54,165 bases of DNA, taken from Archangiaceae bacterium (lineage in GTDB: Bacteria > Myxococcota > Myxococcia > Myxococcales > Myxococcaceae). The position numbers were made by a program, and so were the translations under genes. The stretch covers positions 1 to 54,165 of the forward strand of contig JAYVCD010000051.1 in NCBI GenBank assembly GCA_043750125.1, read 5' to 3'. Of the stretch, positions 3,708-41,363 are shown piece by piece; position 1 is the stretch's first letter; each line of letters opens with the position of its first letter. Under the pieces are notes generated by a model. It worked only from the letters and a program-made list of their open reading frames with translations. It was not told the origin of the DNA and did no database searches.

Positions 3708-3713
3708 CGTGGG

Positions 3714-4088: not shown

Positions 4089-4211
4089 GGGTGGGCGCAA
4101 GGTAGCGCCGCGGACCTGGCCGCGCACAACGATTTGCGAAAGGTCAGCGGGTGCCAACCGTGTCAGCAGGACGGTTCCCCGCGGCCGCCCGGGACAGATA
4201 TCTTCCCGGGT

Positions 4212-5279
4212 ATGAGCCCACCTCTGGGATCCACGGCGGCCCGAGCGCAGGTGGGCGCGAATGCGAAAGCTCCCGAGGGCTCGGTCGCCACGGTGCTGGT
4301 CGCGTTGATGTCGAACTGCTTCGTGACCGCGATCAAGTTCTGCGCCTTTTTCGTCTCTGGGTCCGGCTCGATGCTTTCAGAAGCGGTTCACAGCCTTGCT
4401 GACACGGGAAATCAGCTGCTGCTCTTCATCGGGCTCAAGCGCGCTGAGCGGGCGCGTGACGACGAGTTTCAGTACGGCTACGGGGGCGAGCGCTTCATCT
4501 TCGGAATGCTCTCGGCCGCCGGAATCTTCTTCGTTGGTTCCGGCGTCACCATCTACCACGGGGCCCGCGGTTTGATGGCTCCCCACCTGCCCGAGATTGG
4601 GCTCGTCACCTTCGTGGTGTTGGGCCTGTCGTTCCTCGTCGAAGGCAGCTCGCTGCTCTACGCACTGATTCCCGCTCTGAAGAAGAGCAAGGGAATGTCC
4701 TTGGGGAAATACCTCAAGGTGAAGGCCGACCCCGCGACGTTAGCGGTGCTGTTGGAAGACGGAGCTGCCGTCCTCGGGCTGCTGGTCGCGACCGCCGGAG
4801 TCACCCTCGCCTACTACACCCAGAGCGGGATCTGGGACGCCGTCGGTTCCATTCTGATCGGCGCGTTGCTGGGCGTAGTGGCGGTGGTGCTGGTCATTCA
4901 AAACCGGGATCATCTGCTCGGGAAAGCGGTGCCCGAAGGCGTAGAGGACAAGTTTGCTGAAATCCTCCGAGCCCGCCCGAGCATCAAGAACGTGCGCGAC
5001 ATCAAGACGCGACAGATCACTCCCGAGGTCTTTCAGCTCAAAGCAGAGATCGTCTTCTCGGAAGTTTTCCTGGCTCAGAAGCTGGACTCGGCGCTTCCGC
5101 ACGAGGCCGCGACGTTCGACGGCGCCGGGCGCGAACGGGTGCTCCTGCTGTTGGCCGCTTGTGCGGCGCGCAGCATCGGAGAGGAAATCGATGCGATCGA
5201 GGCCGTGGTGCGCGCCGTCATTCCAGAGGCCAGGCACATCGACCTCGAAGTCGACCGGGGCGTCGTCCGAGGGATGTAG
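4212..5279 (+). CDS. Cation diffusion facilitator (CDF) family transporter
   Basis: SEAVHSLADTGNQ, YGYGGERF, LLEDGAA motifs; TM helices plus a C-terminal cytosolic domain. Confidence 0.92.
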   Translation: MSPPLGSTAARAQVGANAKAPEGSVATVLVALMSNCFVTAIKFCAFFVSGSGSMLSEAVHSLADTGNQLLLFIGLKRAERARDDEFQYGYGGERFIFGMLSAAGIFFVGSGVTIYHGARGLMAPHLPEIGLVTFVVLGLSFLVEGSSLLYALIPALKKSKGMSLGKYLKVKADPATLAVLLEDGAAVLGLLVATAGVTLAYYTQSGIWDAVGSILIGALLGVVAVVLVIQNRDHLLGKAVPEGVEDKFAEILRARPSIKNVRDIKTRQITPEVFQLKAEIVFSEVFLAQKLDSALPHEAATFDGAGRERVLLLLAACAARSIGEEIDAIEAVVRAVIPEARHIDLEVDRGVVRGM

Positions 5280-5292
5280 ATATCTTGCCGGC

Positions 5293-5835
5293 GTGACCAA
5301 ACAACGGCTCGAAGCTTTCAGCGACGGAGTCGTCGCGATCCTGATCACGATCATGGTGTTGGAGCTGAAGGTTCCCCACGGCGATGGCTGGAATGATCTG
5401 CGGCCGGTGGTCCCCGTCTTCCTCTCGTATGTCCTGAGCTTCGTGTTCCTGGGGATCTACTGGAACAACCACCACCACATGCTGCACGCGACCAGGTCGA
5501 TCAACGGCACCATCCTCTGGGCGAACCTGCACTTGATGTTCTGGCTGTCGCTGGTCCCGTTCGTCACCCAGTGGTCCGGCGAGAATCACTTCTCGGCCTT
5601 GCCGCTGGCTGCATACGGCGCGGTGCTGCTGCTGGCGGCCATTGCCTACACATTGCTGCAGAAGGCGATCATCGCCCACGAAGGGCCGCACTCGCCGCTG
5701 AAGAAGGCGGTGGGAAAGGACACCAAGGGCAAGATTTCCGGGCTGCTGTACGCGATTGCGATCCCGATGGCCTGGTGCCGGACCGCCGCATCGAGCGCGG
5801 AACCGTTACCGGCCCACCCCATTGAGAATGGGTAA
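5293..5835 (+). CDS. TMEM175 (DUF1211) family K+ channel, C-terminus apparently damaged
   Basis: RLEAFSDGVVAILITIMVLELKVP and YWNNHHH signatures; the family-like tail LVPDRRIER lies in another frame near 5772-5800. Confidence 0.85.
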   Translation: MTKQRLEAFSDGVVAILITIMVLELKVPHGDGWNDLRPVVPVFLSYVLSFVFLGIYWNNHHHMLHATRSINGTILWANLHLMFWLSLVPFVTQWSGENHFSALPLAAYGAVLLLAAIAYTLLQKAIIAHEGPHSPLKKAVGKDTKGKISGLLYAIAIPMAWCRTAASSAEPLPAHPIENG

Positions 5836-5980
5836 CCGTGTGCCAGTGCCACGTGCGAACCAGCCATTGACGCCCGCGGGCCCTTCGAATACGAACACTG
5901 CAGAAAGGTAGAGGTGTTTGGGCCGGTTGGAATTTTCCGACCGGCCATTTTTTTTCTGGGCTCTTTTTCCAATAGGGCGA

Positions 5981-6124
5981 ATGACTCCTCGAAAGTTCTC
6001 GAGCGACGTGGCCTTCACCCCTGCCGTGAAAGAGGTTCAGCTTCGCAAGGGCTCTCGGGCGATTTACGCGCGGGTCGAAGCAGGCGGAGAGTGGCAGACC
6101 CGGTTGGGGCGCCTGCCCCGCTGA
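5981..6124 (+). pseudogene. N-terminal remnant of a pyridoxamine 5'-phosphate oxidase-family protein
   Basis: MTPRKFSSDVAFTPAVKEVQLRKGSRAIYARVE resembles that family's N-terminus; stops after 47 aa. Confidence 0.6.
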
Positions 6125-27280: not shown

Positions 27281-28231
27281 ATGACGAAAACTGAGTATCG
27301 AATTGCGAATGCGCCCTGCTCCTGGGGGATTCTAGATTTTGATCCGACCCATCAGATCGGGTTTTCCAAGCTGCTGGACGAGATTTCTGCGACCGGTTAC
27401 GCCGGCACCGAGCTGGGCGCGTGGGGCTTCATGCCCACCGACGCCGCCAAGCTGCACAGCGAGCTGACCCAGCGCGCCCTGGCGATGGTCGGAGCCTTCG
27501 TCCAGGTGAGCCTCACCGACGAGAAAGCCCACGCCTCGGGCATCGAGACGGCGGTTCGCACCGCGGCGCTGCTGGCGGCCGTTCATCGGATGCAGCCTGA
27601 TGCGCCGGCGCCTCCGCTGGTGCTCTCGGACACCATCGGTGGCAATCCGATGCGAGCCCAGCGCGCCGGCCGCATTCGCCGCGAAGACGGGCTGAAGCCC
27701 GCCCAGTGGGACGTGTTTGCCCGGGGCGCGAATCGAATCGCAGCTGCCGTGCGCGAAGCCACCGGAGTGCGAACGGTCTTTCATCACCACTGCGCAGGCT
27801 TCGTCGAGACGCCAGAAGAAGTCAGCGCCCTGATGGATCGCACCGACCCGACACTGCTGGGGCTGTGCCTCGACACCGGGCACTACACGGTCGGGGGCGG
27901 AGACCAGCTGGGCGACCCGCTGGAAGCGCTGCGCCGCTTTGGCAATCGGGTCTGGCACGTGCATTTCAAGGACTGTCAGCCGGCGGTGGCCGAGATTCGC
28001 GATGGGAACGGCAAGATCACCGGGCACCGTCCGTACTCGGAAGCCGTGAGCAACGACCTGTTTTGCGAGCTGGGAAAAGGAGTGGTCGAGTTTCCAGCGC
28101 TGCTCGCTGAGCTCGATGCCCGCACCTACCAGGGGTGGGTGGTCGTCGAGCAGGACATCTTGCCCGGCGCAGGCGACCCGAAAGCGAGCGCCGGCCGCAA
28201 CCGCGAATACCTGAAGTCTCTGGGGCGCTAA
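27281..28231 (+). CDS. iolE: IolE-like inosose dehydratase (xylose isomerase-like TIM barrel)
   Basis: ANAPCSWG, GYAGTELG, FHHHCAGFVET, LCLDTGH, HVHFKD, FCELGKG, GWVVVEQD. Confidence 0.8.
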   Translation: MTKTEYRIANAPCSWGILDFDPTHQIGFSKLLDEISATGYAGTELGAWGFMPTDAAKLHSELTQRALAMVGAFVQVSLTDEKAHASGIETAVRTAALLAAVHRMQPDAPAPPLVLSDTIGGNPMRAQRAGRIRREDGLKPAQWDVFARGANRIAAAVREATGVRTVFHHHCAGFVETPEEVSALMDRTDPTLLGLCLDTGHYTVGGGDQLGDPLEALRRFGNRVWHVHFKDCQPAVAEIRDGNGKITGHRPYSEAVSNDLFCELGKGVVEFPALLAELDARTYQGWVVVEQDILPGAGDPKASAGRNREYLKSLGR

Positions 28232-28233
28232 CC

Positions 28234-29475
28234 ATGACCACCCCTCTGAAATGGCCCACCTGGCCGGTCGCCGATGAGAACACCTATGCCCGCGTGCGCG
28301 AGGTGCTCGAGAGCGGTCGCTGGGCGATCAGCGGAGCCTCGACGGGCGAGCCGTCGCAAGAGCAGCGGTTCGCCGCCGAGTTTGCGAAGTGGAACGGGGT
28401 GAAGCACTGCGTGACGATGGATCACGGCTCGTCGGCGCTGGTCTCGGCGCTCGAGGCGCTCGACCTGGGTTACGGAGATGAAGTGATCGTCCCCGGGATG
28501 ACGTGGGTGGCCCCGGTGCTGGCGGTGCTGTCGGTGAACGCGACGCCGGTGATCGTCGATGTCGAGCCCGACACCTACTGTCTGTCGGCCGAACGCGCCG
28601 CAGAGGCGGTGACCAAGAAGACCCGCGCGATCCTCCCGGTGCACCTCTACGGCTGCATGGTGGACATGGACGCGATTGAAGCGCTGGCCGCGAAGCACGA
28701 TTTGTGGGTCGTCGAAGACTCGGCCCACAGCCACGGCTCGAAGTGGAAAGGCCGAAACGCCGGCACGATGGGCGACATCGGAATCTTTTCGATGCAGCAG
28801 GGAAAGGTTCTCACCTCGGGCGAGGGCGGAGCGGCAGTCACCGACGACGACACCTTTGCCGAACGGCTCGAGCTGTCGGCGTGGAACTCGCGCCGCCGAT
28901 TGGACCCGAACACCGTCAAGCCGGGCAACCTGCAGCTGGTCGAGACCACGACCCGGTACGGCACCAACCGCTGCCTCTCTGAATTCCAGGCTGCGATTCT
29001 GCTCGACCAGCTTCCGCGGCTCGAAGCGCAGAACCGCAAGCGCGAGAAGAATGCCCATTGGCTCGACGCCAGGCTTTCGGCGATCGAAGGGCTCGAGCCG
29101 ATGCGCAGGCTGCCGCAGATCACCGCTCAGACCTATTACGGCTACGTCATCCGGGTGAAGGCGGCGGCGTTCGGCCAGCCCGCGCTGCCGATGATTCCCC
29201 GACTGCGCGAGCTGCTGGGCATGGGCGATTTTCTGCTGCACGGGGCCTACAAGCCGCTGTCGAACAACCCGCTGTACGCGCCCCACCCGAAGATGCACGC
29301 GCTCGAGCCGGCGTACCGCGCGGCCCTGAAAGTTGCGCATCTGAAGCTGCCAAACTCAGAAGCCGGCTACACGGGCTCGATCGTCTTCCACCACTCGGTG
29401 CTGCTGGGCGACGAGGTGCACATGCAGGCCATCGTCGACGCGTTCACCACTCTTCAGCGCGCCACGAGGTCCTGA
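28234..29475 (+). CDS. Inosose aminotransferase, BtrR/StsC-like (DegT family)
   Basis: WPTWP, GRWAISG, FSMQQGKVLTSGEGG, CLSEFQAAILLDQL, QTYYGYV, IVFHHSVLL match my recollection of BtrR-type aminocyclitol aminotransferases along the full length. Confidence 0.88.
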   Translation: MTTPLKWPTWPVADENTYARVREVLESGRWAISGASTGEPSQEQRFAAEFAKWNGVKHCVTMDHGSSALVSALEALDLGYGDEVIVPGMTWVAPVLAVLSVNATPVIVDVEPDTYCLSAERAAEAVTKKTRAILPVHLYGCMVDMDAIEALAAKHDLWVVEDSAHSHGSKWKGRNAGTMGDIGIFSMQQGKVLTSGEGGAAVTDDDTFAERLELSAWNSRRRLDPNTVKPGNLQLVETTTRYGTNRCLSEFQAAILLDQLPRLEAQNRKREKNAHWLDARLSAIEGLEPMRRLPQITAQTYYGYVIRVKAAAFGQPALPMIPRLRELLGMGDFLLHGAYKPLSNNPLYAPHPKMHALEPAYRAALKVAHLKLPNSEAGYTGSIVFHHSVLLGDEVHMQAIVDAFTTLQRATRS

Positions 29476-29481
29476 GCCGCG

Positions 29482-30033
29482 ATGGGAAAGGTGCTGGTGC
29501 TGTTTCATTCGAACACCGGAAACACCCGGAAGATGGGCGAGCAGGTCGGGGTAGGCGCGGCGGAAGTCCCGGGCACGGAAGTGCGGGTCCGCTCGATCGA
29601 CGAGGCCAACCGCGAAGACCTTTCGTGGTGCGACGGGATCGCGCTCGGCTCGGCCACCAACCTGGGCACCGTGCCCTGGCAGATGAAGAAGTGGTGGGAC
29701 ACCCTGCCCGGCGACGTCTGGCAGTCGCTCGATGGAAAGCTCGGCTGTGCGTTCTCTTCTTCGGGCGGTTGGGGCGGGGGCACCGAGCTGGCGTGCCTCG
29801 AGATGTTGATCGTCCTGATGAACCACGGGCTGGTGGTGTTCGGAGTGACCGACTACGTCGAGAAGCACCACACCCTGCACTACGGAGCGGTGCAGGCGGG
29901 CGAGCCGCGCTCGGAAGAAGAGATCGCTTCGTGCCGGCGGCTGGGTCAGCGAATGGCAGAATGGATCGCGGTATTCGTCGACGGGCGCAAAGACCTGCAC
30001 CCCATCGCCCGCGGGTACAAGCGGCAGTTCTAG
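29482..30033 (+). CDS. Flavodoxin-like WrbA-family oxidoreductase
   Basis: HSNTGNT FMN loop, DGIALGSAT, GKLGCAFSSSGGWGGG. Confidence 0.88.
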   Translation: MGKVLVLFHSNTGNTRKMGEQVGVGAAEVPGTEVRVRSIDEANREDLSWCDGIALGSATNLGTVPWQMKKWWDTLPGDVWQSLDGKLGCAFSSSGGWGGGTELACLEMLIVLMNHGLVVFGVTDYVEKHHTLHYGAVQAGEPRSEEEIASCRRLGQRMAEWIAVFVDGRKDLHPIARGYKRQF

Positions 30034-30722
30034 CGGCTGCCCGCGTCGGCGGCGGCTCGTTTCCCAGCGTCGGACGAAGCGGCGGCAAGCCGGGCAGTGG
30101 CACGAAGGGCGGCCTCACGCTCGACTGCGGCGAACGTCTCGACCGGACCTTTGACGTTGTTCATGTTGGTGAACACCGAGGGAATCATCCCTCCCGGGTC
30201 GGCGCTGAAGCGGTAGATGAGGTGCGCTTTGCCGTTGGCGGCCGGGGTGACCGACCAGGAGCCTTCGGAAATCATCAGCCGGACGACGCCGCTGCGCTGG
30301 GGAATCTTGTCGGGCATCGCGTGCCAGTGGCTGGCGTAGATGCCCTGGGTCCAGGGCTTCCGTGCGTCCTTGTCGATGTAGACCTTGTGGATGAAGTCCC
30401 GAGGCGAGAGCACGGGCATGTCGAGGCGAAGGTAGATGTAGATCGCGCCATCGGGGTCCCGGGGGGCGATCTCTTTGGCTTCGGTCATGTACGGCATGTA
30501 CCGGGTGAAGCGGGACGTGTCGGTGAGGACGTCCTGGATGTCGACGACGTCGCCTTTGATCTCGCCTTCCGCCCAGATTTCTTTGACCCCTCCGTTGGCC
30601 CGGTTGCGCGCCTTGACCACAATCGGCTCGGACTGCAGCGTTTCCCACGCCTGTTCCCCGGCCTTTGCGGCGGCAGCGACGAGTAACGCGACGCAACACA
30701 TCAAGCGGGGAATTCGGGGCAC
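30030..30722 (-). CDS. Secreted START-domain lipid-binding protein
   Basis: Signal peptide; YLRLDMPVLSPRDF, GSW, ADPGGMIP; start at 30722 or 30701. Confidence 0.8.
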   Translation of the reverse strand: MPRIPRLMCCVALLVAAAAKAGEQAWETLQSEPIVVKARNRANGGVKEIWAEGEIKGDVVDIQDVLTDTSRFTRYMPYMTEAKEIAPRDPDGAIYIYLRLDMPVLSPRDFIHKVYIDKDARKPWTQGIYASHWHAMPDKIPQRSGVVRLMISEGSWSVTPAANGKAHLIYRFSADPGGMIPSVFTNMNNVKGPVETFAAVEREAALRATARLAAASSDAGKRAAADAGSR

Positions 30723-30905
30723 GGTTCTTTTTATAACGCGTTCCTTCGAATTCAAATTCAGCACCGCCGGCCGCTGAACCCACGCGCTCGACCGACTTCT
30801 GGGTTGCGCCTCGCTTGTTCGCTGACCGAACGGCCCTCTCGGTGATGCCGAGGGGCGCCGGCAAATTGAGTCTCGCCCGCACCCGAGCGCGTTAATGTCG
30901 GGCGG

Positions 30906-31346
30906 ATGCCACGTTCCAAGAACCCCACCGATGCCGTGTTGAAGCAGCTGCGCGACTTCGGGCTTGCGTACCCCGGCGCTCACACCAAGAGCCCGTGGCC
31001 GGGGCACCTGGACCTGGCGGTCAAAGACAAGACGTTTGCCTACCTGAGCATCGAGGGCGAACCGTTTGGCATCTCGTGCAAGCTTCCCCAGTCGAGCTCG
31101 ATGGCGCTGATGCTGCCCTTCACCGAACCCACCGGCTACGGGCTGGGAAAGAGCGGCTGGGTGTCTGCAAAATTTCCGGAAGGAAAGGCGCCGCCAATCG
31201 AAATGCTCAAAGCGTGGATCGACGAAAGCGACCGAGCGCAGGCTCCGAAGCGGTTGGTCGCCACTTTGACTGGGGAACGTCCGGTCGGGGTGGTTACGGT
31301 TCGAGCGACGAAAAAGAAGGCAGCGCGATCGGCTGCCAAACGATGA
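30906..31346 (+). CDS. MmcQ/YjbR family protein
   Basis: PW..H...VKDKTF, PTGYGLGKSGWV, WIDES...APKRL. Confidence 0.88.
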   Translation: MPRSKNPTDAVLKQLRDFGLAYPGAHTKSPWPGHLDLAVKDKTFAYLSIEGEPFGISCKLPQSSSMALMLPFTEPTGYGLGKSGWVSAKFPEGKAPPIEMLKAWIDESDRAQAPKRLVATLTGERPVGVVTVRATKKKAARSAAKR

Positions 31347-31356
31347 AGGGGCCAAG

Positions 31357-31605
31357 ATGAGTGCTTCGATTCCGCTTGAACCGGACCCCGCGCCGAACCC
31401 CCAGCCGCTTCCTGCGCCTGTCCCCCAACCCGAGCTTCCGCCGATTCCGGCGCCGCCGCTGATTCCGGTGCCGGTGCCGCCGCCGCAGATTCCCGAGCCG
31501 CCGCCGACGCGACCGGAAAGACCGCCCGAGCCGACCTACGACCCACCGGGAGACCCTCCGCCGGCCTCCCCGCCGCGCCCCGCGTTTGATCCGCCGGTTG
31601 CCTGA
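31357..31605 (+). CDS. Small proline-rich hypothetical protein
   Basis: 82 aa, 38 Pro by my count; purine-rich RBS-like stretch upstream; fits between two co-oriented genes. Confidence 0.55.
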   Translation: MSASIPLEPDPAPNPQPLPAPVPQPELPPIPAPPLIPVPVPPPQIPEPPPTRPERPPEPTYDPPGDPPPASPPRPAFDPPVA

Positions 31606-31662
31606 CTTCCCAACGTTGCGGGAGAAGTTGATCGCCCCCGGGGACGATGAGATGCAGCCTCG

Positions 31663-32502
31663 ATGGCGCATCGAGAGCTGCTCGTGGTCGGCAACTATGC
31701 CCACGACGAGATCATCACCCAACGGGGCGAAACGTTTTCGGCGTTAGGCGGTGCCACCGCGTACATGTGCAGCGTGCTGGAGGCGCTGGACGCGGATTAC
31801 GAAGTGGTGGCGAAGGTGGGAAAGGATTTTCAGTACGCCGCCGAGGTCATTCGCGCTCCGATTGTCGATGACGCGTGCCCGACGACCCGCTTTCTGGACG
31901 ACTTCACCAGCGGGCGAAGGGAAGGAACGGTGCGCTCGTTGTGCGCTCCGATTCGGGCCGAAGACCTGACCTGCACCGCCCGAATTGCGATCGCCAACGG
32001 GTGCGCCGGGGAAGTGCTGCCGCAGACCGTCGCTCGGCTGCGAGCCATTTCGGAGGTCGTCGTCTGCGATCTGCAGAGCTTGATTCGGGTGCTGGGCCCG
32101 GGAGGAAAGATCGAGCTGATCCCCCTTTCGAAAACCGGTCATCCGATTTCATCGATCGACTTTCTCAAGGGCAGTGAAGAGGAGTCCGAGTATGTCGACC
32201 TGCGCGGACCTGGAAAGCGGCCCATTTTGATCATCACCCGCGGAGCGCAAGGCTGCGAAATCGTCGAAGGCTCGAATCGAACCGTGGTGCCCGGCTTCCC
32301 GGCCGAAGAGATCGACGCCAGTGGAGCGGGCGACTCGTTCATCGCCGGCTTCGCCTACGGGCTGTCCAAAGGCTTCAGCGTTCTCACGTCCGCGCGGCTC
32401 GCCAACCATTGCGGCAGCCTCGCGGTTCAGAAGACGGGAATTCCCCGTCTGACCCGGGAAGACTTCACCGCGGTGCTCAACTCACTCCGCCCTTCGCACT
32501 GA
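31663..32502 (+). CDS. PfkB-family carbohydrate kinase
   Basis: LGGATAY, ITRGAQG, IDASGAGDSFIAGF PfkB signature. Confidence 0.9.
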   Translation: MAHRELLVVGNYAHDEIITQRGETFSALGGATAYMCSVLEALDADYEVVAKVGKDFQYAAEVIRAPIVDDACPTTRFLDDFTSGRREGTVRSLCAPIRAEDLTCTARIAIANGCAGEVLPQTVARLRAISEVVVCDLQSLIRVLGPGGKIELIPLSKTGHPISSIDFLKGSEEESEYVDLRGPGKRPILIITRGAQGCEIVEGSNRTVVPGFPAEEIDASGAGDSFIAGFAYGLSKGFSVLTSARLANHCGSLAVQKTGIPRLTREDFTAVLNSLRPSH

Positions 32503-32617
32503 TGCGGTCCACGAAGGCCTTCTTTGTAAAGCAATCGATTGTTCTTCCACGCAACTTCAAATCGCGATGTACGACAATGTCGCATCATTTGCTGAATCCC
32601 ACCTGCCCAGGACCCCA

Positions 32618-33037
32618 ATGAAACTTCGCCCGACTCCGACTGCAAGCCGCCCCGTCTCTGGTGGCGTTGCCCGCCCCACTCCTACGGCCACGCGCCCGGT
32701 CAAAGGAGGTGGAGTGAAGCCCACCGCGACCGCGACTCGCCCGGTGAAAGGCGGAGGCTTCGCCAAGCCCACTGCGACTGCAACGCGCCCGGTCAGTGGC
32801 CACGGCGTCGCGCGCCCGACTCCGACTGCGACCCGCCCGGTGGACGGCGGAGGTTTTCGCCCGACTCCGACTGCGACCCGCCCCGTAGACGGCGGTGGCT
32901 TTATTCCCACCCCGACTGCGACCCGCCCGGTGAAAGGCGGAGGTGTCGCCCGTCCCACCCCGACCGCGACTCGCCCGGTGAAAGGCGGGGGTTTCGCGCG
33001 TCCGACTCCGACCGCGACCCGGTCGACCAAGGCCTGA
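32618..33037 (+). CDS. Thr/Pro-rich tandem-repeat peptide, putative multi-core RiPP precursor
   Basis: ATG 32618 preceded by AGGA; 139 aa = MKL plus 9 repeat units; synonymous variation between units; 10 bp upstream of the kinase. Alternative start at 32567. Confidence 0.75.
   Translation: MKLRPTPTASRPVSGGVARPTPTATRPVKGGGVKPTATATRPVKGGGFAKPTATATRPVSGHGVARPTPTATRPVDGGGFRPTPTATRPVDGGGFIPTPTATRPVKGGGVARPTPTATRPVKGGGFARPTPTATRSTKA
32627..33034 (+). repeat. Coding tandem repeat: 8 full units of 45-48 bp plus 1 truncated unit
   Basis: Units RPTPTASRPVSGGVA, RPTPTATRPVKGGGV, KPTATATRPVKGGGFA, KPTATATRPVSGHGVA, RPTPTATRPVDGGGF (x2), IPTPTATRPVKGGGVA, RPTPTATRPVKGGGFA, RPTPTATRSTKA. Confidence 0.95.
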
Positions 33038-33047
33038 TCTTCGAGCG

Positions 33048-34025
33048 ATGGCAGTGAAACCCGAACAGGCGCTGCGCCGCTGCATGCGGTCGTGGCGCCT
33101 TTCGTCGTTTGTAAAACAGCCGGCGAGCGGCTCGAAAAACCTGCTCCATTTGACGCGCGACCGGGCCGGCAAAGCCGTGCTGCTCAAGTGTGCGCCGAAC
33201 CCCTTCGACGCGGGAGTGACACGAGAGGCCAATGTCCTGCAGGCGCTCGCACCCGTGATGGGACGCGGCTTGCTGCTTCCCAAACGGCTTGCCTTCGACC
33301 CGAGCGCGCAGGTGCTGGCGCTGGAATGGCTTCGTTCTGCGCCGACGCTGCACGATTCGCTTTGCACGACGCGAAGGCTCGCGGTTCGTCTGCTTCTCGA
33401 GCTCGGCCGTTCGCTCGCGCAGCTGCATCTGCGCTCGGCCCGCGCGCAACCGCTTTTCGATTGGGCGACGGCACCCGACGAGACCCTGCTCGACTGCTTC
33501 ATCTGGACGCGGCCCGCCTTCGCCTCGAGGTTGAGCATCGATGGGACCTTGTTGATCGGCTCGGTGCAAAGCGACCTGCGCGCGCGCGCCGGGTTGATCG
33601 AGCTGTCGGGAAATGCGCACGCCCGCTGCCTCATTCACGGCGATGTGAAGTTGCCAAACCTGTTGGTGACGCGGCGTGGGCCGGTGTTGATCGATTGGGA
33701 ACTGGCGCAGTGGGGAGACCCCGCCCAGGACCTCGGGTCCCTGACCGCAGATTTGATGCGTCGGCAGATCGCGCCCGACTCGGCACGCGAGGCCCTCGAC
33801 CCTCGTGCGCTCGCGCAGGCCCTGGCTGCCATTCGCCGCGGCTACGCGTCGGTGGGCGGTCCCCTGGGGCTCGCTTTGCGTCGTCGGGTTCGGCTCTGGT
33901 CGGGGGCTCATCTGCTCTTCTACGCCCACGCCCTGGTGCTCGCAGAAGGAGCTTTGAGCTGGGCTTCGCAGGCGCTGGCGTTGCGCGCGCGCAGCTTGTT
34001 GTCCGAGGTGCCGCGTGCCGATTGA
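33048..34025 (+). CDS. APH-family phosphotransferase, LanK/TvaC-like peptide kinase
   Basis: LIHGDVKLPNLL catalytic loop and LIDWELAQWGDPAQDLG; overlaps the HopA1 gene. Confidence 0.85.
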   Translation: MAVKPEQALRRCMRSWRLSSFVKQPASGSKNLLHLTRDRAGKAVLLKCAPNPFDAGVTREANVLQALAPVMGRGLLLPKRLAFDPSAQVLALEWLRSAPTLHDSLCTTRRLAVRLLLELGRSLAQLHLRSARAQPLFDWATAPDETLLDCFIWTRPAFASRLSIDGTLLIGSVQSDLRARAGLIELSGNAHARCLIHGDVKLPNLLVTRRGPVLIDWELAQWGDPAQDLGSLTADLMRRQIAPDSAREALDPRALAQALAAIRRGYASVGGPLGLALRRRVRLWSGAHLLFYAHALVLAEGALSWASQALALRARSLLSEVPRAD

Positions 34026-34938
34026 ACGATTGCCCGCGCGCTGGACTCAACTGCTGACCCGGCTCGAGCGAACCGCGACGGGACGAACGCAACTGAAGCC
34101 CTTGAGTCAATCGCTGTACGAGAACCACTTCGCTCGGTGGACCCCGACTGCAAACGCTCACCTGAATGATCCTGCGTTTGTCGAACAGCTCGCACTTTCG
34201 ACCCATCGGGCGGCGATGTGGGAACAGGGCTGGGAGCTCATTCAGCGCGAGGGCCCCTGGAGCTTCGTGCACAGCGGCTTCATTCAGTTGTTCGTCCGCA
34301 CCGCCGACGAAATCCGATCGCGGCGAGCCCGGGTCGGACAACAGGTCGAAGTGCGAATGCCGTGCCTTCGGGAAGGATTGATGCCCGGTTTTCTGTATGC
34401 CTTTGCACGCGCGGGCGGCATTGACCCCGCTGCCGCCCACGTGCGGATCTACCTCAACGTCCAGGCCGAGACAGCGGCGAGGATTTTCCAGACACTGCTC
34501 ACCGCGGAACCCTTCGAGCGACTTCGCTTCGAGATGAAAATGCCTTCGACCCGCGCCGCTTTCTCGCGCTGCGACACGATGGTCGTCTACGCCGAGCCTT
34601 CGAATGCGCACCGACTGCTGCGTCAGCTTCGCGCGCTCAAACGAACTTTTCCGCGAGGGTGGCGCTCGCCCACCCCTTTTGCCGCGTGGGAAATCGAGCC
34701 GGGAATCGCGCTCGCCGAGTCTCCTCCCCTCGCGGCGGGTGCAGCCCAGAGCTTCGGCCAGCATCGCTCGGGCCTGGTGGCGCGCGCGGTGGTCGAAGGC
34801 CTGGCCTTCAAAGAACGCACCGCCGCACTCTGGGCGGCGAGGTTGTGCGCGCTGCTGCAGACCGAAGGCATCGACCCCCAGAGGCCCCATCGACAACGAC
34901 TGGAGCCCGCCTTCTGGGACCGGCTGATCAGGTCGTGA
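34015..34938 (+). CDS. HopA1-family protein, LanY/TvaD-like phospho-Ser/Thr lyase
   Basis: MPGFLYA, VRIYLNV, FEMK...RCDTMVVY, PGIALAESP, SFGQHRSGLVA motifs of the HopA1 family. Confidence 0.85.
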   Translation: MPIERLPARWTQLLTRLERTATGRTQLKPLSQSLYENHFARWTPTANAHLNDPAFVEQLALSTHRAAMWEQGWELIQREGPWSFVHSGFIQLFVRTADEIRSRRARVGQQVEVRMPCLREGLMPGFLYAFARAGGIDPAAAHVRIYLNVQAETAARIFQTLLTAEPFERLRFEMKMPSTRAAFSRCDTMVVYAEPSNAHRLLRQLRALKRTFPRGWRSPTPFAAWEIEPGIALAESPPLAAGAAQSFGQHRSGLVARAVVEGLAFKERTAALWAARLCALLQTEGIDPQRPHRQRLEPAFWDRLIRS

Positions 34939-36304
34939 GGCTGACCACCCCGTTGCTGTCTCCGAAGCTGGTCGCCGGCACACCCAGCGCGCCCAGCACG
35001 CCCATGTAGACATTGGACAGGCGGGTGGCGGCGGTGTTGACGATCAACCGGCCCGGCTTGACGCCCAGCGCCGCTCCGCCCACCAGCAGCGGCATCATGT
35101 TCGCGTGGTTATGCGCCTGATCTCCCATGTCCGAGACGCCGACCATGATCGTGTTGTCCAGCAGCGTGGTTCCATCGGGCAGAATCACGGCTTTGAGCTG
35201 TTTGGCGAGATCTGCGAACTGACTGACCAGCCAGGTGTTCACCGCCTGCTGTTCAGCGATCTTGAACGGGTCGCCGTTGTGATGGGTGATGCCAATGTGC
35301 CAGCCGTCGGTCACCTTGGCGCCGGCGGCCGTGTTCAGAAACGTGTGTTGCATCTCGCTCACCGTGTTCGCGTAGCTGAAGCTCACGACCGGAGTGACCC
35401 CGCACTGCAGCCCGAGCACCATCAGGTTCTTTTCCAGATTGAGATGATCGCGAATGTCGGCCGGAATTCCAGCGGGAGCCGTCCCGGGAACACACTGCGC
35501 CGCGGGGGGCGGAGTCACCGGAACCTGCGCGAGCCGAGTCTCGAAATCTCGAATGTTGGTCTGCAGCTGGTCGACCTTCGCGGCATCTCGCGGGTTGAGT
35601 TTTGCCTTCAGCCGCGCGGATTCGTCGATCGAATGGTCGAGAATGCTCTTCTGGTACAAGAGCCGTTTCCGGGCGATCGCAATCTCGGGGGGCGTGACGG
35701 GAGCCGTGGTCCCGCTGAACATCGCGGTGAAAGCGGTGCGGGGGTTGCGTTCGGGGGGCAGCGGCTGGCCCGGCGCGGCCCACGACGTCGAATAGCAGTC
35801 GGGGTACGGGTAGCTGCCGTCTTCGCACTGGGTCGTCCCGGCGGTTCCCAATTGCATCGCGGGAATTCGTTTCCCCACGCCCAGAATCTTCGAAGCCACG
35901 ATGTCCATCGACGGGCCGACGTTGAGCATTCCCGTCACCGGATGCATGCAGGTGAGCAGAGCGGCGACGCCGCGGGCATGGTCCCCAGCGATCGAATCTT
36001 GCGCACCCGGGTTGGTGATGTTGGTGACGATGGTCAGCTCATTGAGCAGGTTGGCGGCCGCAAAGGGCGCGAACACCGGGCCCAGCTTGGCGGCGGTCAT
36101 GGTGCCACTTCCGGCTCCGACGGCCAGTCGCGCACCCGCGGTGGGCGTCCACGAGGTGGGAAAGTGCCAGACAATCAAATTGGGGCTGCGGGGGCTGGCC
36201 GCAAAAGCCGAACCTGAGACCATCATCTGCTCGAGCAGCGGCAGCCCGATCAGCGAACCACTGCCGGCCAGAAAGCCGCGGCGGGAAATCTGCCATCGCT
36301 TCAA
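34928..36304 (-). CDS. DUF1552 domain protein
   Basis: Tat-like ISRRGFL.G...LPLLEQM, PPERNPRTAF, KSILD, TLLDNT, FGDSNG; TTG start overlaps the upstream stop. Confidence 0.9.
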   Translation of the reverse strand: MKRWQISRRGFLAGSGSLIGLPLLEQMMVSGSAFAASPRSPNLIVWHFPTSWTPTAGARLAVGAGSGTMTAAKLGPVFAPFAAANLLNELTIVTNITNPGAQDSIAGDHARGVAALLTCMHPVTGMLNVGPSMDIVASKILGVGKRIPAMQLGTAGTTQCEDGSYPYPDCYSTSWAAPGQPLPPERNPRTAFTAMFSGTTAPVTPPEIAIARKRLLYQKSILDHSIDESARLKAKLNPRDAAKVDQLQTNIRDFETRLAQVPVTPPPAAQCVPGTAPAGIPADIRDHLNLEKNLMVLGLQCGVTPVVSFSYANTVSEMQHTFLNTAAGAKVTDGWHIGITHHNGDPFKIAEQQAVNTWLVSQFADLAKQLKAVILPDGTTLLDNTIMVGVSDMGDQAHNHANMMPLLVGGAALGVKPGRLIVNTAATRLSNVYMGVLGALGVPATSFGDSNGVVSLTT

Positions 36305-37983
36305 TTGACACCTCCCCTGCGTGAGCTGAACAAGTCGCTGGCGACGATCGACTGCACCAGGTCTTTGAGGTGATTGCCTTTCGCATCCACCTCTTTTGAA
36401 ATTGCGAGAACGAAGGGCCGTTCCTGGGTCGCCAGGTTTCGCCCCAGCGCGTAGTTCATCATCTGGCCGGTGACACAAGACTCGAAAGCAGGGTTCGCTT
36501 TCAGCGCCTTTGCTTCTCCCAGGTGGCCATCGAAGGTCGTGCCGTTGGGCAGCTTCCCCGAGGCATCGACCGCCAGGCCGTTGTCGAGATCGCGATAGGC
36601 CCCGATGCCATCGAAGTGGCCCAGACCGCCGCCCAGTGGGTTGAGCATCTGATGGCACCCTTTGCAGACCCCGTTCGCGGTGACCCTTTCCAGCTGCTGG
36701 CGGTACGTCTCACCTGCGGGCACAACGTCCGGAAGGACGGGGACGTCGACGGGAGGCTCCCCCGGGGGCTGACACAGCAGCTGAGTCAGAACGAATTTTC
36801 CCCGCTTCGCAATCGACGAGCGGACCGGGGTCGAGGTCACCGTGAGGATGCTGGCTTTTCCCAGCAGGCCGCTGCGGTTGGTGTTGCCGACCGCGACGCG
36901 AGTGAACGCAGACCCGGTGACGCCCGGAATTCCGTACAGCGTGGCCAGCGGAGCGTTGACGAACGTGAAGTCCGAATCGAGCATCCCCCGGTAGTCCAGA
37001 CCCGAGGTGAGGTATTCGCTGAAGAAGCGGCGGGTCTCTTCAGCCATCGCCAGCCGCAGCGGCTCGTTGAACCCCGGGTACACATCGGCCGAGGGCGCCG
37101 CGGTGGCGAGGTCGTTGATCCGCAGCCATTGAGTCCCGAACCCATCGACCAGCGCGGTGGCTTTGGGGTCGCTCAAGATCCGTTCGACCTGGCTCTTCAG
37201 CACGACGGGGTCTTTGAGCGTTCCGGACCCGGCGGCGGCGAACAAAGCCGAATCGGGCATGCTGCCCAGAAGGAAGTACGACACCCGCGAGGCCAGCTCG
37301 TAGTCATTGAGCCGGTGCAGAACCGGGGAATTGATGTCCGGGTCGAGCTCAACCCGGAAGACAAAATTGGGGTCGACCAGTGCGGCCTGAAGCGCGAGCG
37401 AGATTCCGGTCTCGAAGTTGTCTCCCTGGCCCTCGGCGATCGCGACCAGCGCGAACAAGCGGTCGACTTCGTCAGCGAGCAGAGGTCGCCGCCAGGCGCG
37501 AAGCCCGAACTCGCCGATGATTTTCCGGGCACACGGGTCATGACCCGTAATCGCCGGGGTACAGCTGAGGATCTTCGCGCGGGCAGGATTCGTGGCACCC
37601 AGCGCGGCGGTGATCAGGCTCTCGGCCGTGCTGACGTATTTTTCGGCGAGCGTCGGCGAGATGGTCAAAACGTCGGCGTTGTTGTCGAAGCTGCCGATGT
37701 TGTCGGTCGGAAAGGTGTCGGCCGGCAGCGTCAGATCGCCCAGCAAGTCGCGCACGGTGTTGTTGTACTCGCCCCGGTTGAGGCGCCGAATCGTGCCCGC
37801 CGCAGCGACGCCCACTCCGGGAACTTCGGGAACGACCGGAATCACGTCCGGCGGGTTCGGAGTGCCGGGCGCCCCGGGGACGACGGGGTTGCTGGACAGA
37901 ATCGAACCGTCACAGCCCACGAGGGCGGCGCAGACCGCCAGAACCAACCACCCGCAGTTGAAGACAAAGGTGCGCTGTTGCAT
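36301..37983 (-). CDS. DUF1592/DUF1588 (PSD-domain) lipoprotein with one CxxCH
   Basis: RRLNRGEYNNTVRDLLG, RAWRRPL, YELASRVSYFL, RSGLLG, KRGKFV, CKGCH, YALGR. Confidence 0.92.
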   Translation of the reverse strand: MQQRTFVFNCGWLVLAVCAALVGCDGSILSSNPVVPGAPGTPNPPDVIPVVPEVPGVGVAAAGTIRRLNRGEYNNTVRDLLGDLTLPADTFPTDNIGSFDNNADVLTISPTLAEKYVSTAESLITAALGATNPARAKILSCTPAITGHDPCARKIIGEFGLRAWRRPLLADEVDRLFALVAIAEGQGDNFETGISLALQAALVDPNFVFRVELDPDINSPVLHRLNDYELASRVSYFLLGSMPDSALFAAAGSGTLKDPVVLKSQVERILSDPKATALVDGFGTQWLRINDLATAAPSADVYPGFNEPLRLAMAEETRRFFSEYLTSGLDYRGMLDSDFTFVNAPLATLYGIPGVTGSAFTRVAVGNTNRSGLLGKASILTVTSTPVRSSIAKRGKFVLTQLLCQPPGEPPVDVPVLPDVVPAGETYRQQLERVTANGVCKGCHQMLNPLGGGLGHFDGIGAYRDLDNGLAVDASGKLPNGTTFDGHLGEAKALKANPAFESCVTGQMMNYALGRNLATQERPFVLAISKEVDAKGNHLKDLVQSIVASDLFSSRRGGVN

Positions 37984-38162
37984 GGACCCCGGCAGAGCAA
38001 TTTCGGGACCGAAACCATCGAGTTTCAGTGGTTCCCAACGTGCTGCGATTCTTCAGTAAACTCCGAGAGGTCGCACCTTGCGCCCGAACGATTCTGCCCA
38101 CTTCTGTGCTCGGTGGACTGAGGAAGCTTCACCTCGTTTCGGACAGGGCCAAATCGGGGACT

Positions 38163-38552
38163 TCAATCGGTCAGTGCGACGGCGTCGATCTCGAGCAGGA
38201 ACGCGGGGTCGGCGAGGCTGGAAACGACCAGCAGGGTGGTCGCGGGGGGCGCGGCCGAGAAGTACTTGTCGCGCCCGTCGCGAATGTGGGGCCGGTAGTG
38301 CTTGAGGTCGGTGGTGTAGATGTTGAGCTTCACCACGTCGGCCAGGCTCGCGCCGGACCCTTCGACCACCGCCTTCAAGTTTCGGAACACCTGGTCCACC
38401 TGGGCGACGATGTCCCCCGGGCCGACCAATGTCCCGTCGAGGCCTTTGGACACCTGCCCGGCGATGAACACGATGTTCCCGCGCCGCACCGCGTGGCTGT
38501 AGCCCTTGGCTTCATAGACCCCCTTCGGCTTGATCCGCTCGAGCGGGGCCAC
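38163..38552 (-). CDS. RidA/YjgF/UK114 family protein
   Basis: YSHAVR, FIAGQV, DVVKLNIY, PATTLLVVSSL...LEIDAVA; GTG start at 38552. Confidence 0.9.
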   Translation of the reverse strand: MAPLERIKPKGVYEAKGYSHAVRRGNIVFIAGQVSKGLDGTLVGPGDIVAQVDQVFRNLKAVVEGSGASLADVVKLNIYTTDLKHYRPHIRDGRDKYFSAAPPATTLLVVSSLADPAFLLEIDAVALTD

Positions 38553-38553
38553 G

Positions 38554-39927
38554 TCAGGCCCGGGCCATGCGCACGCTCTGGCGCAGCAGCACTTTCTTGA
38601 TGATCGCGATCCCGTTGAGCGCAATCTGCCGGTCGATGTTCAAAGGCGGGTACAGCCGCATGCTGTTGCCCGAGCCGCTCGAGCCGAACATCACCAGGAC
38701 TCCGCTGCGCAGCAGGTCCATGAAGATTTCTTCCATCACTTTCGAAGACACCGGCCGCAGCGACTTCTTGTCTTCGACCAGCTCGAACCCGAGCATCAGC
38801 CCGAGCCCGCGGGCCTCACCCATGATCGGAATTTCAATTTCCATCTTCTTCAGTTCTGCGAGCAGCTCGGCGCCGAGCGCGTGGGCCCGGGCGGGCAGCT
38901 CTTCGGCCTTGGTGATTGCGATCGTCGCACCCACCGCCGCGCAGGCCATCGGAAATGCCGCGAAGCTCGACGAATTGAAGCTCGGGTCCGAGAACGGAGT
39001 GCTCTTCATGATCTCGGCGGTCGACAGAACAGCCGTCACCGGGTAGCCCGAGCCCAGCCCTTTTCCCACGATCACGATGTCTGGAATGACATCGTCATAC
39101 TCAAAGGCAAACATCTTCCCTGTCCTACCCATACAGGTCATCGTCTCGTCCACGATCAACAGCGCCCCGAACTCGCGGGCCACCGCTTTCAATTCTTTCA
39201 GATAGCCGGGCGGTGGGGTGATGTTTCCGGCCCGACCCTGAATCGGCTCGACGATGATCCCCGCCAGCGACCCCGCGGACGAGTTCTTGATTTCTTGCCG
39301 CACGTGGTCCACGCAGGCGAACTTGCACGAGGGAAACGTCTGCTTCAGCGGGCAGCGAAAACAGTAGGCGTACGGGGCGGTGAGGGCTCCAGGCGGCATC
39401 GGGCCCAGCCCCTTTCGCGCCCCGTCGGTGAGCGCCAAAGCCCCCATCGTCTTCCCATGGTAGCCATTCCAGAAGCCGAGAAATTCGTATTTCCCGGTGT
39501 GAGACTTGGCGAGCCGAAGCGCACCTTCGACCGCTTCCGTGCCTCCGCTGAAGAACTGCACCCGATCGAGGCCCTTGGGAAAAATCGATTGAAATTCCTC
39601 GAGCATGCTCACCCGCGCGGGGGTGTTGAATGAGCCGATCGCCAGCGATGAGAGCTGTTGGGACATCGCTTCGATGTACTTCGGGTGCGAGTGGCCGATG
39701 CTGTTGACCCCGCTGCCCCCCATGAAATCGAGGAACACGTTTCCGTCGGCGTCCTCGAGAAAGGGACCCTGACCGCGCACCAGACTCAGTCTTGCCCACT
39801 GCACGACCCGCTGAAGACCCGGGCCGATGACTGTGTTCTGCTTTTCCCAGCTGGCCAGCGACTTCGGGCCGGGAATTTCAGTTGTAAGAATTGGCTGTTT
39901 TGTCTGAAACGCGATACCTAAACTCAT
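38554..39927 (-). CDS. Class III PLP aminotransferase (4-aminobutyrate aminotransferase-like)
   Basis: GTEAVEGALRLAK, YHGKT, IVEPIQG, LIVDE...MGRTG, GKGLGSG. Confidence 0.93.
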   Translation of the reverse strand: MSLGIAFQTKQPILTTEIPGPKSLASWEKQNTVIGPGLQRVVQWARLSLVRGQGPFLEDADGNVFLDFMGGSGVNSIGHSHPKYIEAMSQQLSSLAIGSFNTPARVSMLEEFQSIFPKGLDRVQFFSGGTEAVEGALRLAKSHTGKYEFLGFWNGYHGKTMGALALTDGARKGLGPMPPGALTAPYAYCFRCPLKQTFPSCKFACVDHVRQEIKNSSAGSLAGIIVEPIQGRAGNITPPPGYLKELKAVAREFGALLIVDETMTCMGRTGKMFAFEYDDVIPDIVIVGKGLGSGYPVTAVLSTAEIMKSTPFSDPSFNSSSFAAFPMACAAVGATIAITKAEELPARAHALGAELLAELKKMEIEIPIMGEARGLGLMLGFELVEDKKSLRPVSSKVMEEIFMDLLRSGVLVMFGSSGSGNSMRLYPPLNIDRQIALNGIAIIKKVLLRQSVRMARA

Positions 39928-39974
39928 TGGGCGCGGTCGTATGAGCCGCCTAAAATACTGTCAAGGAGTTTTGC

Positions 39975-41363
39975 ATGGGACGCACCCCCGAGCGGAAAAT
40001 CAGCCAACCAGAGAATCAAAAGCCACACCTGGTGACCGAAATTCCGGGGCCGAAGAGCAAGGCGCAGCGGGCGCGCGAAGAGGCGCACTACGCGCCGGGT
40101 CATCAGCGCTATTCGGCGATGGCTGGAATCGTGGTCGACCAGGCCCGAGGCAACGCGGTCACCGACATCGACGGCAACACCTTGCTCGACATCGTGGGCG
40201 CGATTGGAGTCAATGGGCTGGGGCACTCGCACCCGAAGTGGACCGCGGCGATCGTGAACCAGGTGCAGAACGTCTCGGCGGGAAGCTTCTCGTCCAACGC
40301 GCGGGTCGAGCTGATGGAAAGGGTCGCGATGCACGCGCCTTCCCCGGGCGTTCACCGGTTGCAGCTGTACTCGGGGGGCGCAGAAGCCGTCGAATCTGCA
40401 CTGCGATTGGCCAAATGCTACACAGGCAAGAGCGAATTCGTGAGCTTCTGGGGAGGGTTTCACGGGAAAACCATGGGTGTATTGAGCTTGATGGGCTCTG
40501 ATTTCAAGAAGGGCCTCGGCCCTCTGGTGCCTGGAAACCACCTCGTCCCGTACGCCAATTGCTACCGCTGCCCGTTGAAGCTCAAGTACCCGTCGTGTGG
40601 AATGGCGTGTGTCGAGCTCGCCGAGAGCCAGGTGCGCTCGAGCTCGTCGGGGTCGATCGCGGCGTTCCTGGTCGAGCCGATGCTGGGCGCGGGAGGCAAT
40701 AATCCTCCGCCCAAAGAGTTTCTTCCGGCGGTCAAGGCGATGGCGAAGAAGTTCGACGCGCTGCTGATCGTGGACGAAATGATCACCGGGTTTGGCCGCA
40801 CCGGAAAATATTGGGGCTCGGAACACACCGGCACCGCGCCGGACATCGTGACCATCGGGAAGCAGTTCGGCGGAGGTCTTCCCGTCACCGGGCTCATCTC
40901 GCGCGACGACATCGTGCAGTCCAAGCCATGGGCCAACCCGTCGGGGTCTTCTTCCAGTTATGGCGGCAACCCGCTGGCATCGGCAGCGGCCGCGGCCTCG
41001 TTGCGGATCATCGATGAAGAAGAGCTGGTCGAGAACGCGCGCCGCATGGGGGAATACTTCCTCGGCAAGCTCAGGCCGTTCCTCGACGACTATCCGTTCG
41101 TCGGCGACGTGCGTGGGCAGGGGCTGCTGTTGGCGCTCGAGCTGGTGAAGAACAAAGAGACCAAAGAGCTGCTGCCCCGGTCGGTCTGCAAAGTGATGTT
41201 CGAGGAATGTCTGAAGCGAGGGCTGATCTGTCTGACTTTTGACCCCGTCTTTCGGATTCAGCCCGCGATGACCATCGACGAGGCGACCATCGACACGGTG
41301 GTGGCGATTCTCAGAGAAGTGTTCGACCACGTGAAGAAGCACGCGCTGTGGTCGGCGGCCTGA
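39975..41363 (+). CDS. Class III PLP aminotransferase, paralog of the divergent gene
   Basis: GAEAVESALRLAK, FHGKT, LVEPMLG, LIVDEMITGFGRTG, GKQFGGG. Confidence 0.93.
   Translation: MGRTPERKISQPENQKPHLVTEIPGPKSKAQRAREEAHYAPGHQRYSAMAGIVVDQARGNAVTDIDGNTLLDIVGAIGVNGLGHSHPKWTAAIVNQVQNVSAGSFSSNARVELMERVAMHAPSPGVHRLQLYSGGAEAVESALRLAKCYTGKSEFVSFWGGFHGKTMGVLSLMGSDFKKGLGPLVPGNHLVPYANCYRCPLKLKYPSCGMACVELAESQVRSSSSGSIAAFLVEPMLGAGGNNPPPKEFLPAVKAMAKKFDALLIVDEMITGFGRTGKYWGSEHTGTAPDIVTIGKQFGGGLPVTGLISRDDIVQSKPWANPSGSSSSYGGNPLASAAAAASLRIIDEEELVENARRMGEYFLGKLRPFLDDYPFVGDVRGQGLLLALELVKNKETKELLPRSVCKVMFEECLKRGLICLTFDPVFRIQPAMTIDEATIDTVVAILREVFDHVKKHALWSAA

Follow-up and report, generated by a model that had tools for sequence, protein, structure and literature searches.

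A three-gene cassette in an Archangiaceae genome

We analyzed a window of 54,165 nucleotides (positions 1 to 54,165 of contig JAYVCD010000051.1, assembly GCA_043750125.1, Archangiaceae bacterium), in which three tightly coupled genes encode a Thr-rich tandem-repeat protein without Cys, an APH-fold kinase, and a HopA1-family lyase. The two enzymes resemble the kinase and lyase (LanK/LanY) that dehydrate Ser and Thr in class V lanthipeptides. All coordinates are on the scale of the window, and the features of the cassette are as follows.

32609..32612, + strand: Shine-Dalgarno-like AGGA, 5 nt 5' of the ATG of the repeat gene
32618..33037, + strand: repeat-protein gene, 139 amino acids plus stop, proposed substrate (list of open reading frames [ORFs], Tandem Repeats Finder, composition)
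33048..34025, + strand: LxmK-like APH-fold Ser/Thr kinase gene, ATG start, 325 amino acids (Pfam, NCBIfam, PDB profile match)
34015..34938, + strand: LxmY-like HopA1-family phospho-Ser/Thr lyase gene, GTG start, 307 amino acids (Pfam, PDB profile match)

The repeat gene ends 10 bp before the kinase gene, and the GTG start of the lyase overlaps the stop of the adjacent, co-directional kinase gene by 11 bp. The coordinates, gap, and overlap given for the three coupled genes in an initial annotation of the window were all confirmed. In the ORF list, the frame of the repeat gene is already open from 32567 (32567..33037, + strand), with the ATG inside it at 32618. A promoter scan detected no sigma-70–like promoter around the cassette, terminator-like sites near it were no more frequent than in shuffled sequence (4 vs. 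3.2), and Rfam gave no match within 31000–36000.

The first gene is predicted to encode a leaderless, Cys-free repeat protein

The 139-residue protein (13.8 kDa, isoelectric point 12.0) contains 27 Thr, 24 Pro, 22 Gly, 17 Ala, 15 Arg, 12 Val, 8 Lys, 4 Ser, 4 Phe, and no Cys. The pattern PT[PA]TA[TS]R matches it nine times between residues 5 and 129, and both the Thr, Ser, and Cys counts and the nine repeats agree with the initial annotation. The units are ∼15–16 residues long, with a core x-P-T-(P/A)-T-A-(T/S)-R-P-V and a spacer x-G-G-G-x(-A), and Tandem Repeats Finder reports the array as 7.4 copies of a 48-nt period and 4.5 copies of a 45-nt period. Pfam has no family for this protein.

The same repeat ORF lies directly 5' of the kinase gene at two related loci, L004 and G001, whose lyases are 51 and 58% identical to that of the window, respectively; G001 is a genome of a different family in the same order. 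The ORF encodes 149 residues with nine units in L004 and 93 residues with six units in G001, both likewise without Cys as translated. None of the three proteins has a leader, for the window and G001 sequences (MKL-RPTPTA) enter the first repeat at residue 4 and the L004 sequence does so at residue 5. Variation was scored over 23 of the 24 core units of the three loci, the last unit of the window, which ends in RST, falling outside the pattern. The first two Thr are invariant in 23/23 units, the third is replaced by Ser once and by Ile once, and the Pro between the first two is replaced by Ala in two units.

Contigs built from short reads (four runs from one study) tile the array without a differing letter. 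Since none of them spans 32813–32883, a region of two near-identical units, the number nine depends on the original assembly; one 45-nt unit gained or lost would keep the reading frame. Because there are nine units and no leader, the term "peptide" may undersell the product, which possibly functions undivided as a 13.8-kDa protein. A putative precursor and enzymes are encoded together, as for a RiPP (ribosomally synthesized and posttranslationally modified peptide). We identified no cleavage motif, protease, or exporter for the product, and a modified protein is therefore as conceivable as a small released RiPP.

The kinase and lyase look catalytically competent

Pfam identifies APH (PF01636) in the kinase with an E-value of 2.4e-18 (67 bits, cut-off 23.2) and HopA1 (PF17914) in the lyase with an E-value of 5.2e-28 (98.5 bits, cut-off 22.7). 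The identities first proposed for these genes therefore stand, including the assignment of 34015–34938 to HopA1. The best NCBIfam model for the kinase is that of LxmK (NF038156, 63 bits, E = 2.5e-17). A profile of 12 kinases matched LxmK (9dk1_A) best in the PDB at 3.3e-16, the next best match being at 2e-8, and a PDB search with the single kinase sequence gave no match. A profile of the window lyase and eight relatives matched LxmY (9dk1_B) at 1e-25 over query residues 10–292. Entry 9DK1 is the heterodimeric lexapeptide dehydratase LxmK/LxmY with its substrate cavity (PMC12141560).

In the kinase, K47, E60, H197-G-D199, N204, D216, and E218 are invariant in 12/12 sequences, and in the lyase R144, K175, R185, and Y192 are invariant in 9/9. 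The spacing of the four lyase residues is 31/10/7, compared to 32/10/7 for R187/K219/R229/Y236 of CaoY, to which they were mapped by spacing alone and not by alignment. The K, R, and Y do align to LxmY (9dk1_B), at ...AKV... and ...RRDAVVLY.... In CaoY, mutagenesis showed R187 and K219 to be essential and R229 to be important, and Y236 is conserved (PMC9486802). Since the catalytic residues are conserved, both enzymes look catalytically competent, and the earlier designation of the two genes as a LanK/LanY-type pair is borne out by these residues and by homology to LxmK/LxmY.

The long GTG start of the lyase is supported by homologs that align from residue ∼4. The public gene call (P0001) has only 240 residues, 78% of the ORF, and lacks the N-terminal region that homologs conserve and that aligns to LxmY. 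The two enzymes are almost always paired: a kinase match is present at 61 of 80 metagenome loci and lies 5' of the lyase at 60 of these 61, and 17 of the 19 loci without a match have <750 bp of upstream DNA.

The repeat gene accompanies the kinase–lyase pair at related loci

A search of 1.84 billion cluster representatives returned 1,818 lyase relatives at E ≤ 0.001 and 19 at E ≤ 1e-30; the relatives P0010–P0012 are 38–47% identical. A word-index search returned five relatives, 51–58% identical, and the nearest named relative is labeled "Deltaproteobacteria bacterium." Within the phylum, 54 of 401 sampled genomes have a lyase match at E ≤ 1e-10, 51 of them in the window's own family. A profile search of genome contigs gave one 29% match, which we judged to be spurious. 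Of the closely related loci, the three with sufficient DNA 5' of the kinase (the window, L004, and G001) all have the repeat gene, and their flanking genes differ; L003 and L005 fall outside this count because their upstream DNA is too short. The initial annotation had suggested checking close homologs for an upstream Thr-repeat ORF, and one is found at 3/3 evaluable loci. A DNA pattern for PTPTATRPV matched 2 of the 401 phylum genomes, the window's own (G000) and G001, with five matches each, all within the cassette, while a reversed control pattern gave five single matches in five genomes. As the motif occurs only in these two genomes and inside the cassette, it is inherited together with this enzyme subclade, and patchily so.

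Since public gene callers omit the repeat ORF, the case for its translation is comparative. A word-index search with the repeat protein returned nothing at E ≤ 0.01, the query itself included, and a protein atlas gave only chance-level Thr-rich look-alikes (scores 0.76 and 0.75). In all three loci, an AGGA core lies 5–6 nt before the ATG, the ATG is 3–4 codons ahead of the first unit, and the stop comes 1–4 codons after the last unit. The ATG at 32618 is further supported by the start MKLRPTPTA common to the window and G001. Variation among the 23 units is 0.052, 0.057, and 0.348 at codon positions 1, 2, and 3, a pattern suggestive of purifying selection on the sense frame that, like GC content at third codon positions (GC3), cannot exclude one antisense frame because that frame shares the wobble position. 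GC3 was rejected as an argument for the sense frame on the same ground. A stop interrupts this antisense frame in L004, whereas no stop interrupts the sense frame at any of the three loci.

A sister clade carries a different repeat protein in the same position

We fetched sister-clade loci, all from the window's bacterial family, in which the lyase is 30–36% identical to that of the window. Directly 5' of the kinase, 10 of the 12 evaluable loci have a leaderless, Cys-free repeat ORF with a conserved Ser motif. Nine of these (L097 and L121–L128) are of a PLKSxxP type, and L118 is a variant (PTSIRP / PLKSIRP); L098 has no upstream DNA. The PLKS-type ORFs start with ATG and encode 115–204 residues of Pro-rich units with the core P-L-K-S-x-x-P and no Cys. 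They begin with MPRI(N/P)KPLTSANPF or, in two cases, with MPRVTNKPLTS or MPRTSNKPLTT, and purine-rich GGAG/GGGAA boxes lie 5' of all eight that we examined. G332, a closed 9-Mb chromosome of a culturable relative, also has a PLKS-type cassette, although its lyase sits on a long branch. Between L125 and L128 there are 28 nucleotide differences, distributed 6/2/20 by codon position, which lead to 5 amino acid changes in the sense frame and to 14–24 in each of the five other frames. A sister clade with kinase–lyase pairs behind a different predicted leaderless, Cys-free repeat protein is new here.

We placed 82 lyase segments in a quick maximum-likelihood tree (IQ-TREE), leaving out duplicates of a locus and rows in which the lyase match extended over fewer than ∼200 residues of the query. 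Precursor labels were assigned by eye, and L003, whose upstream DNA is missing, was labeled PTPTAT-type from lyase similarity alone. The PTPTAT- and PLKS-type lyases fall within a 25-row clade with a support of 99 in the Shimodaira–Hasegawa-like approximate likelihood ratio test (SH-aLRT). In it, the PTPTAT-type rows form a clade with a support of 100 and join the PLKS-type rows at 89. All rows labeled as having a Cys-containing precursor, either a short peptide that is Cys-rich at its C terminus or a large Cys/Thr/Pro-rich repeat ORF, lie outside the 25-row clade.

Three further kinds of locus were noticed in this survey. First, the lyase of L006 branches at the base of the 25-row clade, and at this locus (3521–4799, + strand) a putative 426-residue ORF, Ser-rich (74 Ser) and Cys-free with SKRSGxSPKxKGP-like repeats, ends 58 nt before the kinase–HopA1 pair. 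Second, L044, L070, L080, L061, L020, and L081 have large Cys/Thr/Pro-rich tandem-repeat ORFs just 5' of their kinase–HopA1 pairs, examples being 508 residues with 70 Thr and 35 Cys, 449 residues with 52 Cys, and 400 residues with 40 Cys. Earlier class V mining collected ORFs of <110 residues with Cys and Ser/Thr (PMC9486802), a size far exceeded by these ORFs, which could be protein-sized, many-ring lanthipeptide substrates. Third, contig C449 of the window's genome holds a second, distant pair (L102; kinase 4139–5026, HopA1-like gene 5251–6003), whose lyase is 28% identical with one TGA inside the match. Upstream of the L102, L099, and L130 pairs lies a protein of ∼390–480 residues that ends in ...FLEE..ELKRP(T/N/S)F and, in L130, where the whole protein was translated, is Ala/Pro-rich. 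The L102 type is the only type of pair found in three genomes of the same genus.

The cassette stands apart from genes for ring formation, thioamidation, and export

In the window, a PfkB kinase gene lies upstream of the cassette, and DUF1552- and DUF1592-family genes lie downstream on the opposite strand. The stretch 27281–41363 also holds a TIM-barrel isomerase-like gene, a DegT aminotransferase gene, a flavodoxin-like gene, RidA, and two class-III aminotransferase genes. The cassette is flanked in G001 by genes for an enoyl-CoA hydratase and a response-regulator–GGDEF protein and in L004 by a nucleoside phosphorylase-family gene (PNP_UDP_1), so that the repeat gene is the sole conserved neighbor of the pair in the three loci. 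By Pfam, no LanD, LanX, LanC, YcaO, protease, or exporter/transporter is found within ∼5 kb on either side (genes in 27281–41363), in line with the initial annotation, which had noted no adjacent decarboxylase, cyclase, YcaO, protease, or exporter. The YcaO-type thioamidation family was not seen in the Pfam tables of the flanking genes, no genome-wide search having been made for it. The genome's sole PF02441 match is on another contig (C214), and LanC-like PF05147 has no match in this 89%-complete genome, a weak negative since the control of that search matched no genome.

The (Me)Lan or AviMeCys cross-links of a class V lanthipeptide depend on Cys in the core. Class Va lanthipeptide clusters include LanD and LanX, and class Vb clusters include LanC (PMC12291118). 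Enzymes of these superfamilies would also fit a conventional class V lanthipeptide or thioamitide cluster in which a precursor with Cys had escaped notice. We consider this most improbable, given that neither the upstream protein nor its two orthologous ORFs contains Cys, that none of the partner genes is seen nearby, that the one PF02441 match and the missing LanC-like match (with the limit of its control) point the same way, and that the lyase sits in a clade with none of the rows labeled Cys-precursor. As translated, the product of the repeat gene, with 0 Cys in 139 residues, cannot be a lanthipeptide, as had been stated from the outset: it falls outside class V because Cys, a leader, and LanD/LanX or LanC are all lacking.

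Two other features were seen 5' of the cassette. An 82-residue, extremely Pro-rich ORF with PxP runs and no Pfam match (31357–31605, + strand), a putative gene, sits ∼1 kb upstream between a YjbR-like gene and the PfkB gene. Next to it, two long ORFs overlap on opposite strands, at 30030–31355 (−) and 30906–31346 (+); one of them matches a START domain weakly and below cut-off (E = 7.6e-4), the other has a YjbR match above cut-off, and just one of the two is likely to be real.

Proposed dehydration of the repeat protein

We think it probable, judging from homology and residue conservation, that the kinase phosphorylates Thr in each unit and that the lyase eliminates the phosphate to leave dehydrobutyrine (Dhb). 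On this reading, the cassette is a self-contained three-gene operon, combining a leaderless, Cys-free, very basic Pro/Thr/Gly/Arg-rich repeat protein with a LanK/LanY-type two-component dehydratase. In the first step, the kinase would recognize the repeat unit itself and, with ATP, phosphorylate at least one of the three Thr in each x-P-T-P-T-A-T-R-P-V core. In the second, K175/Y192 of the lyase would remove the alpha-proton, and elimination of the phosphate would yield (Z)-Dhb. At least the first two Thr of each unit are likely targets since they are invariant. Either as a protein or after cleavage into peptides, the product would carry up to 27 Dhb and no thioether rings; it might persist as a linear poly-Dhb protein, form Lys adducts or cross-links, or be released by proteolysis as ∼15-residue units. 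There is precedent for the chemistry: CaoK/CaoY reconstituted in vitro carried out eight dehydrations, and a K219A variant left phosphorylated peptide only (PMC9486802), while the same two-step dehydration was proposed from the structure of LxmKY (PMC12141560). A complex prediction with the kinase, the lyase, and residues 1–64 of the repeat protein gave ipSAE (interaction prediction score from aligned errors) values of 0.01 and 0.01 and, having been run without controls, counts neither way.

Several observations weigh against this scheme. Known LanK enzymes need a leader peptide (PMC9486802), and a hydrophobic contact between leader and LanK has been described for CaoA/CaoK and LxmA/LxmK (PMC9486802, PMC12141560). 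Because there is no leader here, recognition must use the unit or the spacer and would have to differ from that of known LanK. The 63 bits of the kinase are far under the 315-bit equivalog cut-off of NF038156, and by this profile score it is a relative of LxmK and not an equivalog. An exact look-up of seven repeat ORFs, from the window and related loci, in ∼15 billion proteins found 0/7, and in the window and G001 the antisense frame with the shared wobble position is likewise open. In the sister clade, no repeat ORF was found upstream in L117 and L119, and in L120 the available 214 bp of upstream DNA encode a Pro-rich repeat that lacks both Ser and Thr, a partial counter-example. Finally, the cassette is dispensable, being absent from three genomes of the same genus, which have just the distant second type of pair.

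Some of these points would be expected if the repeat ORF were a bystander or not translated and the pair acted on a substrate encoded elsewhere: the ORF is missing from public gene calls, high-GC repeats keep several frames open, and L117 and L119 have a pair without a visible repeat ORF. We regard this as unlikely nonetheless, since the repeat gene is the only conserved neighbor in 3/3 loci, its motif is found nowhere else in the 401 genomes, the array is bounded exactly by the start codon, Shine-Dalgarno box, and stop, substitutions cluster at third codon positions, and in 10/12 sister loci the place of the repeat gene is taken by one for an unrelated repeat protein with a conserved Ser.

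Dhb might also be only an intermediate that reacts with Lys or other nucleophiles, giving an intra- or intermolecularly cross-linked or adducted protein instead of a linear poly-Dhb protein. A Lys next to or near the hydroxyl residue is conserved, both in the V-K-G-G-G spacers (8 Lys in the window protein) and in the P-L-K-S units, and it would be the best internal nucleophile because the protein is Cys-free. Several spacers in the window and L004, however, carry D, S, or M instead of K, the cassette has no conserved neighbor that might serve as a cross-linking enzyme, and Dhb is a poor Michael acceptor compared to dehydroalanine (Dha). Although Michael addition to Dha and Dhb is established chemistry (PMC13577452), we hold this outcome to be rather doubtful.

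It is more doubtful still, and in our estimate improbable, that the end-point is a multiply phosphorylated repeat protein, with the lyase serving only to erase phosphorylation irreversibly or to regulate, and without accumulation of a stable dehydro-protein. The kinase does look intact, and lyases of the OspF/SpvC/HopAI1 type, which have been compared with CaoY, erase regulatory phosphorylation on host kinases (PMC9486802). The 11-bp overlap, indicative of translational coupling, and the near-universal pairing argue instead for a single two-step machine, which is how CaoKY and LxmKY work.

Beyond two-step dehydration of the repeat protein in the window, we tentatively propose a wider reading, which we see as possible without holding it to be the probable one. 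An unannotated class of leaderless, Cys-free, Pro-rich repeat proteins (PTPTATRPV and PLKSxxP types) may exist in a deltaproteobacterial/myxobacterial-type lineage, each with a dedicated LanK/LanY-like pair that would convert it into a poly-dehydroamino-acid protein. This would amount to programmed endogenous "eliminylation" of a whole protein at many sites, with unit-based recognition, and the product might be an electrophilic cross-linking material or many short Pro-rich dehydropeptides.

Relation to known systems and significance

The closest known systems are LxmK/LxmY (lexapeptide) and CaoK/CaoY (cacaoidin), which, like the cassette, have a separate APH-fold kinase and HopA1-fold lyase side by side. 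The likeness to LxmKY extends to full-length homology and to the lyase R/K/R/Y and kinase K/E/HGD/N/D residues, which are conserved in the cassette enzymes. Unlike class V systems, the cassette has a proposed substrate with nine tandem units, no leader, and no Cys, and it has no LanD/LanX (Va) or LanC (Vb) nearby. Its host is an environmental deltaproteobacterial-type metagenome-assembled genome and, in contrast to those systems, not an actinobacterium.

Thioamitides need YcaO/TfuA-type thioamidation and the formation of aminovinylcysteine (AviCys), whereas by Pfam no such genes are found among those flanking the cassette and the substrate has no Cys. The thioamitide enzymes TvaC/TvaD (ThoC/ThoD) are the same kind of kinase and HopA1-like lyase pair and dehydrate Ser/Thr of a ribosomal peptide (PMC9486802). 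As in the proposed scheme, eliminylation by OspF/SpvC/HopAI1 is a beta-elimination that converts pThr on a protein to Dhb, and these enzymes share the base Lys and the Tyr with LanY-type lyases (PMC9486802). In contrast to these enzymes, which act on and inactivate host mitogen-activated protein kinases phosphorylated by host enzymes, the cassette of a free-living bacterium encodes kinase, proposed substrate, and lyase in one operon. Multicore RiPP precursors also have repeated cores in one precursor, yet with leader or recognition sequences and flanking protease sites. Linaridins are linear Dhb-rich RiPPs without lanthionine, their Dhb being made by unrelated enzymes.

In the literature searched, which did not extend to the supplements of PMC9486802 and PMC12291118, no leaderless, Cys-free, or tandem-repeat substrate of LanK/LanY is described, and nothing joins HopA1 with myxobacteria. 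Within that literature, the initial impression that no system with this layout has been described holds.

LanK/LanY pairs have been used as a mining handle for class V lanthipeptides and thioamitides, with a search for short, Cys-containing, leader-bearing precursors. From the cassette and its relatives of the PLKS type, it seems that this chemistry is also applied to another kind of substrate, one missed by gene callers and mining rules alike. The enzymology is as expected. What was not expected is the kind of substrate, the fact that annotation does not see it, and that it is spread across a bacterial family. If the proposed scheme is true, the pair would be a leader-independent dehydratase that reads a short portable motif, useful for installing Dha/Dhb in proteins. 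It would also be, to our knowledge, the first known case of a bacterium dehydrating its own repeat protein at many sites.

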